Below, one piece after another: positions 11,408 to 34,177 of a stretch of DNA of 64,000 nucleotides; the first letter of the stretch is position 1; the number at the start of each line of letters is the position of its first letter. A model generated the notes under the pieces. The model worked only from the letters and a program-made list of their open reading frames with translations. It was not told where the DNA came from and did not search any database. A program made the position numbers and the translations under genes. Source of the stretch: Eledone cirrhosa. Taxonomy: Eukaryota. Where the stretch lies: NCBI GenBank assembly GCA_964016885.1, contig OZ024743.1, forward strand, positions 323,144,001 to 323,208,000, read 5' to 3'.

Positions 11408-11437
<30 letters not shown>

Positions 11438-11473
11438 AATAAATAACAAAGAACGCTTATAGCATATGCATAT

Positions 11474-11531
11474 CTTTACTTGCTAACATTGTTTCATCCA
11501 CACTATAAGTGGGACTCATCAGAGCATAAAG
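11474..11531 (-). ncRNA. Minimal type-I hammerhead ribozyme (left arm)
   Basis: Reverse complement of the 13427-13484 motif. Confidence 0.8.
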
Positions 11532-12038
11532 GTTAAATTACATACCATACAAGCAATAACAAATCCAAGACATTGAAGAATGAAAGGTAATAATAGACGA
11601 TAGAGGATAAGAATAAAAAGTAAATAAAAATAAAAGTGAAAATAAAAATAAAAATAAGGGGTGCTATCTGTCACAGTTGGGCGGTGTGCTGTCAACATAT
11701 AGTTACATACAAGCATACACATGGATAAGAGAACAGACAAGAGTAGACACATGGATAAGAGAACAGACAAGAGTAGATAAGATAATGGGATTAGGTAAGA
11801 GTAGGTAAAAAATAGGTAAAAAATAGGTAAAAAACAGACTTATAATATATATAAAAAGAAATACAAAGAAATACATAACAAACTTACATATAAAATATAG
11901 GGTAAGGAATAATATACAATTAAAAATTATATACATAGAACATAAGATAAAATAAGGTAAACTAAAATCAAATAACATAGACTAAATTAAAATTAAAATC
12001 AAATGTGTAATTATAATTATATGTATAATTAAATGTAA

Positions 12039-12074
<36 letters not shown>

Positions 12075-12867
12075 AAATTAAAAATTAAATAAATAAATAA
12101 AATTAAAATTTAAATTTTAAAATTTTAAAATTAAAATCTAAATTTAAATATAAATAAATAAATAAATAAATAAATAAATGGAGTCAAGTAAGTAAATAAA
12201 TAAAATTAGATAACATGAAATGAAATAAAATAAAATGAAATAAAGTAAATTGAGATAAGATATATATTTTTTTAGAATATATCTCTTGAATATATCAGGG
12301 GCCCACGAAGGCACTAAATGTCACAGTTATGTGTATCACTTGACCAATTTTTCAAAATACATTTCTTGAAAACATCAGGGGCCCACGAAGGCACTAAGTG
12401 TCACAGTCACCAGTATCACTTGACCATTGCAAGGCAATGGAGGCGTCCCAGGTTGGGCAGTCTCGAAAGTTCACTCGAAAGTCATGGGTGTGCATTCACA
12501 CTGTGAATGCACACCCATGACCAGTGATACTGGTGACTGTGACACTTAGTGCCTTCGTGGGCCCCTGATGTTTTCAAGAAATGTATTTTGAAAAATTGGT
12601 CAAGTGATACACATAACTGTGACATTTAGTGCCTTCGTGGGCCCCTGATATATTCAAGAGATATATTCTAAAAAATATATATCTTATCTCAATTTACTTT
12701 ATTTCATTTTATTTTATTTCATTTCATGTTATCTAATTTTATTTATTTACTTACTTGACTCCATTTATTTATTTATTTATTTATTTATTTATATTTAAAT
12801 TTAGATTTTAATTTTAAAATTTTAAAATTTAAATTTTAATTTTATTTATTTATTTAATTTTTAATTT

Positions 12868-12903
<36 letters not shown>

Positions 12904-13426
12904 TTACATTTAATTACATTTAATTATACATATAATTATAATTACACATTTGATTTTAATTTTAATTTAGTCTATGTTATTTGATTTTAGTTTACCTTAT
13001 TTTATCTTATTATGTTCTATGTATATAATTTTTAATTGTATATTATTCCTTACCCTATATTTTATATGTAAGTTTATGTATTTCTTTGTATTTCTTTTTA
13101 TATATATTATAAGTCTGTTTTTTACCTATTTTTTACCTATTTTTTACCTACTCTTACCTAATCCCATTATCTTATCTACTCTTGTCTGTTCTCTTATCCA
13201 TGTGTCTACTCTTGTCTGTTCTCTTATCCATGTGTATGCTTGTATGTAACTATATGTTGACAGCACACCGCCCAACTGTGACAGATAGCACCCCTTATTT
13301 TTATTTTTATTTTTATTTTCACTTTTATTTTTATTTACTTTTTATTCTTATCCTCTATCGTCTATTATTACCTTTCATTCTTCAATGTCTTGGATTTGTT
13401 ATTGCTTGTATGGTATGTAATTTAAC

Positions 13427-13484
13427 CTTTATGCTCTGATGAGTCCCACTTATAGTGTGGATGAAACAATGTTAGCAAGTAAAG
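13427..13484 (+). ncRNA. Minimal type-I hammerhead ribozyme (right arm)
   Basis: cuuua-UGCU CUGAUGA [GUCCCAC uuaua GUGUGGAU] GAAA C aau G UU | AGCA-ag-uaaag; stems I, II and very short III present; predicted cut after 13473. Confidence 0.8.
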
Positions 13485-30960: not shown

Positions 30961-32379
30961 CCCTTTAGCATTGAAACCAGCCGTATCTGGCCAGAATTTT
31001 CTCTCCACTTCCTATTCAAACTGGCTGTAACCAGCTGCTCATACTTATGTTGAGGTATTGTTCTCAAAATAAATATCAAAAATCTCTTAGATTCAATATT
31101 ATGTGAGATAATTATGTGAATAGTGTTTATTGTGAAAATACAATAGGAAATATAGGGTAATCATCATTACCGTTTTACGTCCGTTCTTCCACGCTAGTAT
31201 GGGTTAGACGGGTTGTCCTGTTGTGGGTAGTGTCTGGTCGGCTGACCATGCCTTGCTCATACAGGAACTGAGTTGGCTTGATTTCTACAGCTGGATGCCC
31301 TTCCTAACACCAACCTCATTTACAGTGAGTGCTGGGTGCATTTTCGTGGCGCCTACACGTCCACTTTACAGTGTGGGCTGGGTGCTTTTTTGCCGTGGCA
31401 CCTCCACGACCACCTTGCGGTGGGGTGTGTGGGGGCGTATTGTCTATATGCTTCAGCTTGTACCCATGGGAGGTCGGGTACTCTGTATTACTGCGTGACG
31501 CCAGAGGTCACGGTCGTGTGTCATTGCCTTTGAGAGGTGTAATTGGGTAAGGTCGGCTTTTATCACCTCATCCCAGGTCATCTTGGGTCTCCCCCACTCC
31601 GCGGTTTCCATCGACTTCTAGTGTTGTGCACCTTTTTATGCAGCTGTCATCCTTCATACGCATCACATGTCCATACCAATGCAACCGCCTCTCCTGCACA
31701 CAGCATTTGATTCCTCTTATGCTCAGTCTCTCTCTCAATTCATTTATGCTTTGCCGTTCGCCTATATTACTGTTACACATCCATCAGAGCATGCAGGCTT
31801 CGTTTCTCTCTAATCTACGTAAGTCTTCCACCTTCAGCGCCCAGGTCTCACAACCATGCAACATCGCTGTTCGGATGCACGCATCATACAGTCTGCCTTT
31901 CATTCTGAGGGAGAAGCCTTTTGCAGCTAGCAGTGGTAGTAGTTCCCTAAACTTTTTCCATCCCGTTCTTACCCTAGTTATTGTACTTTCTGAACACCCA
32001 CCTCCGCTGCTAATTCGGTCACCTAGGTAGCAGAAGCTGTCTACTGTTTCTACAGAGCCCTCCCAGAGATTGGTGGTACTTGTTTCCTGTGGCTGCTTGC
32101 TGTCTCAGCACAGCTGCTGCATGTGAAGCCTACATTCTTAATTAAGCTTCCTGAGATCCCGCTACATCTCTTGTGTACCCATTGTTTGCATTTGGGGCAG
32201 AGCATGGAGTTCCTACCAACACCTTTCCTACATACTGAGCAAGGCCATTTCCCTGAGGGGATCTGGGTTCTGTTTTCTCGTCTACTTACAAGGACCTGAG
32301 TCTTTGTCATGTTGACTTTGAGACCCTTTCTTTCTAGTCCCTGCTTCCAAGTTTGGAATTTATTGTAAATGCTAAAGGG
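30961..32379. mobile_element. piggyBac-type MITE split by an RTE insertion
   Basis: TTAA-CCCTTTAGCATT left end, AATGCTAAAGGG right end; body matches 52614 and 58972 copies. Confidence 0.8.
31160..32364 (-). mobile_element. RTE LINE family C, 5'-truncated
   Basis: NKFQTWKQG..WPCSVCRK..; 3'UTR matches 6656-6940. Confidence 0.92.
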
Positions 32380-32877
32380 TTTAAATGGGAAGTACACATT
32401 GGATAATGTGGTCCTGAATAAATGATGCTATGGTCACAGTTGGTGATAGGTGGCTCAATCAAGCTGTCTTGGAGTTAAACAAAAATAACATGTTAGTGTG
32501 TTTAAAAACATCTCTGCACACTCATCACCACATCAACATTATGTTTCGTTAGAGATATGGTAATGAAAGGATTGATTATATAATATTTTCTTGCGTTTAG
32601 TATGTCTTTAATAGCTCTGCAGTTATTCAAAACATTTTTCTGTGTTCATTTTTCATAATTTCACCTGTGAGACCCAAGATTCTCAAAATTATTTCATTAA
32701 GTCATTATATTTCATCTAATATTTATCATCAAATCACATTGTATGTCCTTATCAATACGACCGTGTCTTTGAGGAATGTGGCTCTTTGAATTATTGGAGG
32801 GTAGAAAATCATAATATCTACTCTACTTTCTGAAGAATTGAGTACTAACAGGATCTTAAAAGTCTTAACTAGTAACT

Positions 32878-32923
<46 letters not shown>

Positions 32924-32951
32924 AAAATCCGAAGGCAAGGTAAAATTCCAA

Positions 32952-33039
32952 TCATTTAATCACGACACATGTTTCAATAAGAGATAGATCGATTGTGAAG
33001 CCATGATCGATTATCACTGATCTCATCAGGTGAAAATGA
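32952..33039 (-). ncRNA. Type-I hammerhead ribozyme with long stem II
   Basis: ucauuu-UCAC CUGAUGA [G..gauaaucgau../aucgaucuauc..U] GAAA CA ug UG UC | GUGA-uu-aaauga; GUC cleavage triplet; palindromic ACAUGU in stem III. Confidence 0.75.
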
Positions 33040-34051
33040 ATTGTCTTCAAATTTTTGATATGAGGGAGAAAAAATAACGATGTTCTCTCACAGAATTCAT
33101 TCCCTCATATGGAGACACGGCGACTGCTATTAGCTTCAGTTGAGGTCATAAGTTTTCAGATTTCTATCGGTGCAAAAGACGCTGGACATCAATCAAATCT
33201 GTAGAGATACAGTCAGTCACAGTTAAAAGTGAGTGGGTACACACACACTCCACACCCACATACATCAGCTCGAGGTCAAAGAAAAATATATACATATATA
33301 TACACGCATCAACACAGTATTAAACCCGTAGAGTTAGTGTGGGTGGGTACACACACACTTTCACACACACCGAAGCGATGTCCGAGAAAAAAACAAATAT
33401 AATAAAACAAATATAAGAATGTACCAACACAGCAATCACCGAAAGTTAGTTCACAAAGCAACAGAAGCTATGTTGGTCAAATCTCAATTTGACGATGTAA
33501 ATTGGAAATATTGGGTTAACCAACGCCCCACGCACGCACGCACGCACGCACACACGCAAGTAAGTTCAGTTCAGTGTTCTGCTATACGTGTATAGATCGA
33601 ATTGTAACATCCATATCTTCAAGTGTATGTTATGGTATATACACATCCGAATCGTCCAAAAAAGGGTATGTCCGGGTATATACACATCCATGTGAAGAGC
33701 AAGCAATCAGCTCATGTCGAACTCCTTGTGTACTGCTGTCCCATTGAGAATCCGTGTCACCAAATCCGTGCATGCAAGCAACCGTAATGTAGGCCGGCAA
33801 AGGGCTCCCTGAAGGGTTGGGTATTGGGTAAATGTGTCCGCAAGTGCGATTTCACGTCATATGGGCCAATGAGCTTTTAAGATAATTGTTTGAGTGGTGG
33901 AGGTGTGTTATCCAACACAGAAGGTGAAGTAAGAAAACACAGGACAGTAAAATCCAAAGGATGTGTGTAGGCCCATTATATATATAATGTCCCAAGGCTC
34001 TGATACCATCGACACCAAAAACACAGAGTTGGCATATCTAAGAACTGACTA

Positions 34052-34107
34052 ACTGCCTGATGAGGTCATAGCCATTCAATGGTTATCATCGAAATATATA
34101 TAGCAGT
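34052..34107 (+). ncRNA. Minimal type-I hammerhead ribozyme
   Basis: ACUGC CUGAUGA [GGUcAUAGCCAU uca AUGGUUAUcAUC] GAAA UAUAUA UA | GCAGU; predicted cut after 34102. Confidence 0.82.
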
Positions 34108-34177
34108 AAATAAAGGATTATGATTTCATGCAATTGACTTATGTTTCGTCACTATATATATATATATATATATATTA

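Follow-up and report, generated by a model that had tools for sequence, protein, structure and literature searches.

Background

Among the retroelements described so far, certain Penelope-like elements (PLEs) come closest to the arrangement considered here, namely two pairs of outward-facing type-I hammerhead ribozyme motifs at (TA)n tracts in a 64-kb stretch of the Eledone cirrhosa genome (assembly GCA_964016885.1, contig OZ024743.1, positions 323,144,001 to 323,208,000). This whole stretch is referred to as the window, and the two pairs with the DNA between and around them as cassette 1 and cassette 2. Hydra-1_Obim, from Octopus bimaculoides, is a (TA)n PLE whose hammerhead is cut about 36 nt from the element end, by arithmetic on the published table, and Penelope-13_HM, which also prefers (TA)n, has within its 3045 nt an inverted copy (nt 1-966), an antisense hammerhead at 102 and a sense one at 2944 (PMC8557442). 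The same source describes a PLE form in which a 5'-truncated inverted copy stands at the 5' end and one of the ends is extended, and in PMC3846280 inverted repeats of PLEs meet head-to-head, with palindromes where they join. Truncated PLEs have been given as the source of dual hammerheads that lie 100-700 bp from each other on opposite strands (PMC4209133).

In PMC8557442 the way in which inverted PLE insertions arise is regarded as an open question. Self-priming is favoured for the inverted arm in PMC3846280, where no cross-mobilisation was found between the two PLE types studied. Purified PLE protein, which is predicted to form a dimer, nicks and extends both strands, and in vitro reverse transcription began inside the RNA, with ribozyme mutants inserting normally (PMC11167929). 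In LINE-1 (a long interspersed nuclear element, LINE), chimeras of two RNAs in opposite orientation have been ascribed to twin priming (PMC13174262).

Hammerhead motifs at (TA)n tracts

The motifs and the tracts near them are as follows.

11481 to 11526, minus strand: HH1, type-I hammerhead; core start 11522, predicted cut after 11485, 50 nt to (TA)n
13432 to 13477, plus strand: HH2, hammerhead; core start 13436, core as in HH1, predicted cut after 13473
32960 to 33033, minus strand: HH3, hammerhead with a long stem II; core start 33029, predicted cut after 32964, 45 nt to (TA)n
34052 to 34107, plus strand: HH4, hammerhead; core start 34057, predicted cut after 34102, 50 nt to (TA)n
11407 to 11434: (TA)14 tract, likely target, with a 5'-truncated LINE ending on its other side
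32881 to 32918: (TA)19 tract
33977 to 33986: (TA)5 between elements A and B, forming a 16-nt palindrome with three extra bases per side
34153 to 34174: (TA)11 tract, beyond which an unrelated repeat ends in an ATC tail

The initial annotation had reported four hammerheads of three sequence types, three of them ending near (TA)n, and both statements are borne out. The descriptor finds four type-I hammerheads in the window, compared to a mean of 0.01 in 200 composition-matched resamples, and in all four the CUGAnGA, GAAA and NUH core elements are intact, with HH1 and HH2 sharing an identical core; a stricter descriptor (stem I of at least 5) retains HH4 alone. From the predicted cut site to the nearest (TA)n the distance is 50, 45 and 50 nt for HH1, HH3 and HH4, and 127 nt for HH2. 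Only 6.3% of window positions lie within 60 nt of at least five TA units, so that three out of three independent families lying at (TA)n would arise by chance with a probability of ~2.5e-4 (arithmetic from this background). Both the hammerhead motifs and their association with (TA)n are thus genuine. In all three families, which are represented by element 1 (the unit of cassette 1), element A (the left element of cassette 2) and element B (the right element of cassette 2), the hammerhead lies on the sense strand near the 3' end, 45-55 nt from the end of the element. All three end at (TA)n in the window, in line with a (TA)n target preference, and more (TA)n-bordered copies occur in the read data. 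At the DNA level elements 1, A and B have no meaningful similarity to each other (best E 0.05).

Self-cleavage of HH1-HH4 is a prediction from their intact cores, the fold not being favoured over shuffled sequences: the regions of HH2, HH3, HH4 and a fifth motif (HH5, described below) are no more stable than shuffles (z -0.4 to +1.0). Such weak folding would fit the weak, dimer-dependent type-I motifs of PMC4209133. Rfam gave 116 matches in the window at E<=1, none to a hammerhead family; nearly all are microsatellites hitting microRNA models, besides three weak tRNA matches. No second same-strand copy of any hammerhead end, as would be seen in a direct pseudo-long-terminal repeat (pLTR) or a partial tandem, occurs in the window. 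A direct pLTR is, however, an optional feature of PLEs, and Hydra-1_Obim is listed without one (PMC8557442).

Cassette 1

Cassette 1 (11430-13600) consists of two oppositely oriented arms and the segments that join and extend them.

11430 to 12416, minus strand: left arm, inverted copy of a T-rich element with no detected open reading frame (ORF)
12268 to 12426: 80-bp tandem repeat inside the element, close to its 5' end and with a mirror copy in the right arm
12417 to 12480: one-sided 64-nt segment, on the left side of the junction only
12481 to 12521: junction palindrome, with perfect 20-bp arms around base 12501
12523 to 13528, plus strand: right arm, with 52% T on the ribozyme strand and without a match to PLE proteins
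13529 to 13600, plus strand: 72-nt extension found on one arm, the right, with (TA)7 and a TA/TG array after it; either a PLE 'tail' or host flank

The arms (11430-12416 and 12523-13528) are one inverted duplication, with a single substitution and six gaps, all in simple repeats, over 983 columns. Because of this near-perfect duplication HH1 and HH2 count as one event, which means that the geometry noted earlier as common to two cassettes comes down to one independent pair, for which a divergent orientation is expected in one out of four cases by chance. The earlier statement that 5' ends are joined in the middle is not borne out for cassette 2, where the (TA)5 at 33977-33986 lies between the elements. 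Cassette 1 displays three published marks of PLE insertions, i.e. the inverted 5'-truncated copy, the one-sided extension and the junction palindrome (PMC8557442, PMC3846280), and in the window the combination of inverted truncated copy and junction palindrome is found in cassette 1 only. Judged from its sequence, cassette 1 is thus likely to be one insertion in the published inverted form. The arms gave no match to 150 PLE proteins, and the 80-bp tandem repeat contains CTGAT motifs which fail the hammerhead descriptor.

Cassette 2

Cassette 2 (32919-34152) is built differently.

32919 to 33976, minus strand: left element A, ~1.06 kb, likely one 5'-truncated PLE copy, deepest at its ribozyme end
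33574 to 33907, minus strand: frameshifted GIY-YIG-like and Cys-linker-like motifs in A, Neptune-like by eye
33987 to 34152, plus strand: right element B, 5'-truncated to 166 nt, from a separate and very abundant family

The cassette was compared with four public sequencing runs (X1, X4, X5 and X6, of which X5 carries another organism label). In this comparison depth is not copy number, and the findings come from the 24 pieces listed of ~1,950 and from the listed loose ends, which stand beside 288 others. The ribozyme ends are far deeper than the middle of the cassette in X1, X4 and X6; in X1 the ends reach 57,000-102,000 and 48,000-418,000, compared to 1,400-14,500 in the middle. For A, the depth drops away from its 3' end, and overlapping contigs cover 32919-33266 and 33422-33922; none of the pieces listed spans A whole, which likely runs for ~1.06 kb up to the (TA)5. 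For B, other copies continue upstream of 33987-33988 into one conserved sequence that is not that of the window (591 X6 reads, two X4 contigs and one X5 contig), and therefore the B of the window is a truncated piece of 166 nt with TA on both sides. The reads, which cover A and B, thus show 5' truncation of B and point to it for A. Other copies begin directly on (TA)n, in X6 at 34033 (113 reads, maybe from one locus) and in X4 at 33108 (one contig), and none of the five joints listed changes strand or links A to B.

Several peaks of read begins and ends in X6 were considered as alternative 3' ends or tails and rejected together with their loose ends, all eight distinct places falling on AATT or CATG restriction sites. 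In X1, X4 and X5, the terminal 34 nt of B (34098-34131) are also seen behind another conserved sequence, in which a hammerhead core is not shown; this is perhaps another family that has only the 3' end of B in common. At 33998-34009 (minus strand) B contains a 12-mer resembling a plant-type initiator-tRNA primer-binding site, probably by chance.

The GIY-YIG-like motif of A occurs once in the window and in none of 5000 resamples, with a pattern that was chosen post hoc. Repeated protein searches gave no significant match for the middle of cassette 2, which a hidden Markov model (HMM) built from 118 of 150 relatives of the PLE remnant described below scores at 1.7 bits. The exact HH4 motif is absent from the metagenome contigs.

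Taken together, cassette 2 is likely to be two separate insertions stacked in one (TA)n tract, which explains everything seen in it, including the central (TA)5.

A Penelope-like remnant between the cassettes

The initial annotation had named a GIY-YIG remnant in the window as a sign of a mobilising clade, which is correct as far as a real PLE nearby is concerned.

21719 to 22470, minus strand: decayed PLE C-terminus with Cys linker and GIY-YIG domain, Nematis-like by motif
21590 to 21641, minus strand: HH5, a fifth, decayed hammerhead-like motif with one core mismatch and a 6-bp stem II, ~80 nt behind the GIY-YIG stop
22591 to 22743, minus strand: second, different GIY-YIG fragment (independent E-value 1.7e-07)

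A full HMMER search with the remnant found 274 relatives at E<=0.001, where a word-based protein search had overlooked it. Of 13 relatives scanned, 11 contain RVT_1 and 10 contain GIY-YIG, i.e. they are reverse transcriptase (RT) proteins with a C-terminal GIY-YIG domain. HH5, which the initial annotation had missed, lies right behind the remnant, the position expected for the 3' end of a PLE. With a C-terminal GIY-YIG and Cys linker, homology to RT-endonuclease polyproteins and a hammerhead behind it, the sequence at 21719-22470 is identified as a real PLE endonuclease remnant. It has no DNA in common with the cassette elements, and it therefore shows that PLEs exist in this genome but does not show that it moved these particular families. 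Near the second GIY-YIG fragment, the segment at 22818-22895 matches 37627-37704 at 78%.

Neighbouring repeats

TA tracts in the window also adjoin a LINE, a DDE transposon remnant and other repeats, and stacking at such tracts is therefore common here. The repeat content of the window resembles that of an octopus genome. The LINE has an RT ORF at 9470-11482 (minus strand), with further copies at 19180-20094, 23976-25124, 31551-32427 and 34596-35466. The RT of this family contains a PHD-finger-like Cys insert (Pfam PHD, E 3.3e-05), and several copies are 5'-truncated with ATC tails. The DDE transposase remnant (15013-16297), with a weak DDE_3 match, is TA-flanked and has terminal inverted repeats. 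At 18458-18618 a 48-bp inverted repeat (92%) lies 57 nt from a (TA)14, and no hammerhead core was found in it.

Hammerhead and (TA)n loci in metagenomes

A pattern scan for a hammerhead core together with (TA)6 gave 118 metagenome loci, from 12 of the 64 parts of the collection. The descriptor was passed by 28 of them (and by none of six viral loci); 12 of these 28, having less than 200 nt upstream, were set aside, which left 16 to be assessed for arrangement. Two are same-family head-to-head pairs (L012 and L064), and the 300 nt upstream of position 2069 in L064 resemble a miniature cassette 1, running from (TA)7 through a short inverted arm, a junction palindrome and a longer sense arm to (TA)21. 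Three are arranged tail-to-tail across a TA tract, with the same family in L096, a related one in L120 and a different hammerhead in L028, while three (L028, L055 and L096) begin on a (TA)7-9 tract no more than 115 nt away from the core. None of the 16 loci, six of which have at least 2 kb upstream, is a mixed head-to-head pair. These loci show that elements can face either way around a TA tract. A distance of 40-50 nt to (TA)n was found in 16 of the 28 passing loci versus 29 of the 90 failing ones, a weak difference (p 0.025, post hoc, loci non-independent). By eye, L031, L072 and L012 match a published motif of the Hydra clade (that of Hydra-2_aMil, PMC8557442).

Opposite-strand cores ~3 kb upstream in L038 and L055 were weak, with core mismatches, and were not counted. 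In two further loci a PLE-like ORF stands tail-to-tail with hammerheads on the minus strand: in L009 the ORF is at 910-2310 (plus strand) and the hammerheads are at 2675 and 2956, and in L011 the ORF is at 599-1517 (plus strand) and the hammerhead is at 1587.

Proposed mechanism and alternative explanations

Following these results, it seems quite probable that the hammerheads mark the 3' ends of three PLE families that insert into (TA)n, cassette 1 being one inverted insertion and cassette 2 two insertions. A PLE protein with RT and GIY-YIG domains would nick the (TA)n, and copying of the RNA by target-primed reverse transcription would start 45-55 nt downstream of an uncut ribozyme and usually stop early, resulting in 5' truncation. 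The copy could then end on the other side of the target, giving a monomer flanked by TA on each side, or the same RNA could be copied again in inverted form, either on the other strand or by fold-back, which would give cassette 1. The TA left beside an insertion would be a target again, allowing different families to stack in any orientation, as in (TA)19, A (pointing left), (TA)5, B (pointing right) and (TA)11 for cassette 2.

The hammerhead-processed template of the initial annotation is not supported, since the inserts extend 45-55 nt past the cut site, so that the RNA that was copied would not have been cut at that ribozyme; this agrees with the normal insertion of ribozyme mutants, i.e. 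the dispensability of cleavage in vitro (PMC11167929). Priming on both strands of (TA)n, as proposed in that annotation, would be a fair model for the inverted arm of cassette 1 in view of the both-strand extension reported in PMC11167929; as a one-step origin of cassette 2 from two RNAs it is not supported. Between second-strand priming and self-priming the window sequence does not distinguish. That (TA)n-targeted, hammerhead-bearing retroelement ends were moved by Penelope-like proteins is likely right.

A number of observations weigh against this combined reading. The 72-nt extension of cassette 1 exceeds the published PLE tail of 30-40 nt, and the structure of this cassette is as given in the assembly. 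The 16 nt at the junction of cassette 2 form a palindrome of the kind that could result from a fold-back join. The read comparison covers 24 of ~1,950 pieces, and short contigs and restriction-based reads are unable to show rare joins between A and B. With only six of the 16 metagenome loci having 2 kb or more upstream, the zero for mixed pairs is weak, and these loci come from other organisms, several with a common sample prefix, and are not independent. The GIY-YIG-like motif of A was not confirmed by repeated protein and database searches, and for none of elements 1, A and B is there a proven coding link.

The best surviving alternative, although an unlikely one, is that cassette 2 arose in one event, in which, as the initial annotation had proposed, nicks on both strands of (TA)n primed two different RNAs and their cDNAs were joined in the middle. 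These unrelated hammerhead RNAs would have been copied on opposite strands by a PLE dimer, or by two PLE complexes at the same site. The cleavage and extension of both strands by purified PLE protein and its predicted dimer (PMC11167929) are in line with this, as are the two-RNA chimeras of LINE-1 twin priming as a precedent (PMC13174262) and the palindromic junction; simultaneous nicks could also leave a short piece of TA between the inserts. However, the (TA)5 at the junction, which resembles the target, is what two insertions in one tract leave, and A and B are separate families that both have copies starting on (TA)n with no partner shown. Elsewhere, the metagenome loci include monomers and tail-to-tail pairs, with none mixed head-to-head out of 16 and one mixed tail-to-tail (L028). 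The cassette is a single independent case of an orientation expected in one out of four, and no cross-mobilisation was observed between two PLE types in PMC3846280. Two insertions in one tract are thus preferred for cassette 2.

For cassette 1, a fold-back artefact of sequencing or assembly, or a later inverted duplication unrelated to insertion, is very improbable. The single substitution between the arms over 983 columns could point to it, but the six simple-repeat indels, the one-sided 64-nt segment and the separate 20-bp junction hairpin fit the PLE form, the duplication stops at the element's own 3' end as in published cases, and small versions are seen in independent assemblies (L012 and L064). 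It is hardly credible that cassette 2 is a mobile unit copied whole and bounded by two ribozyme ends, since, although depth in all 30 bins in X1 and X6 indicates that the middle is repeated too, in X1 the depth of the ends exceeds that of the middle by ~4- to 300-fold, the B family runs into a different conserved sequence at 33987, X4 depth is zero at 33927-33968 and the junction is bridged by none of the pieces listed.

Implications

Three (TA)n-associated, hammerhead-ended repeat families are added here, none of which was found in the supplement of PMC8557442, and cassette 1 illustrates the inverted PLE form clearly, with non-coding arms of ~1 kb. Mixed-family head-to-head pairs would be a natural test of whether one RNA or two are copied, for which the single case here is not decisive. 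If a two-RNA origin of cassette 2 were true, the cassette would be a fossil record of an inverted arm being made from a second RNA by twin priming, not by fold-back, and of the PLE machinery mixing families. No report of mixed-family head-to-head PLE pairs was found in the literature covered, which left out most subscription journals.

Comparison with known systems

The animal non-LTR (long terminal repeat) retrozymes (10.64898/2026.07.22.740005) are similar in having a type-I hammerhead, in being non-coding and in their proposed PLE origin, but they consist of head-to-tail tandem units each with a hammerhead, and no element in the window is so built. LINE-1 twin priming (PMC13174262) also yields segments of opposite orientation through priming at opposite ends, including from two RNAs; it involves another enzyme class and no ribozyme, and is a precedent for the two-RNA model only. 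With the minimal type-I hammerheads of Cervera and de la Pena 2014 (PMC4209133) the window motifs have in common a weak palindromic helix III and a short helix I; in both, most motifs are solitary and some form pairs on opposite strands. The published pairs are 100-700 bp apart, with their family relation unstated, compared to 1.0 and 1.9 kb in the window.

As for the proteins, a short Cys linker and a DKGG[ED]F-type motif are, by eye, common to the Nematis PLEs (Fig. S2/S7) and to the 21.7-kb remnant with its relatives, and this Nematis-like remnant has no DNA in common with the cassette elements, while the longer linker spacing of the Neptune PLEs (Fig. S2) resembles the motifs of element A (by eye).

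The structure of endonuclease-positive (EN+) PLEs (Arkhipova et al. 2013, PMC3846280) is like that of cassette 1 in its inverted head-to-head arms, junction palindrome, extension of one arm and AT-rich target. Cassette 1 differs in having arms of ~1 kb instead of ~200 bp and an extension of 72 instead of ~31 nt, and in lacking a direct pLTR pair, an ORF and, because of the TA, a readable target-site duplication.

The closest likeness is to the Hydra-clade PLEs (Craig et al. 2021, PMC8557442), which show the same preference for (TA)n as the window families and have a type-I hammerhead near the 3' end, at 36-48 nt in the five table rows computed and farther in others. They differ in that element 1 is ~1 kb long with no detected ORF and no Hydra-type protein is shown in the window; the three hammerhead motifs were not found in the available supplement, where a line break could hide a match. 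Since geometry, (TA)n preference and a ribozyme near the 3' end are already published for PLEs, the new system suggested by the initial annotation is probably not one. The features are real and likely belong to a known class, the geometry of cassette 1 is a known one and cassette 2 likely reflects a coincidence of target; Penelope-13_HM, with its 5'-truncated inverted copy and an outward-facing hammerhead on each strand at (TA)n, is the published counterpart of cassette 1.

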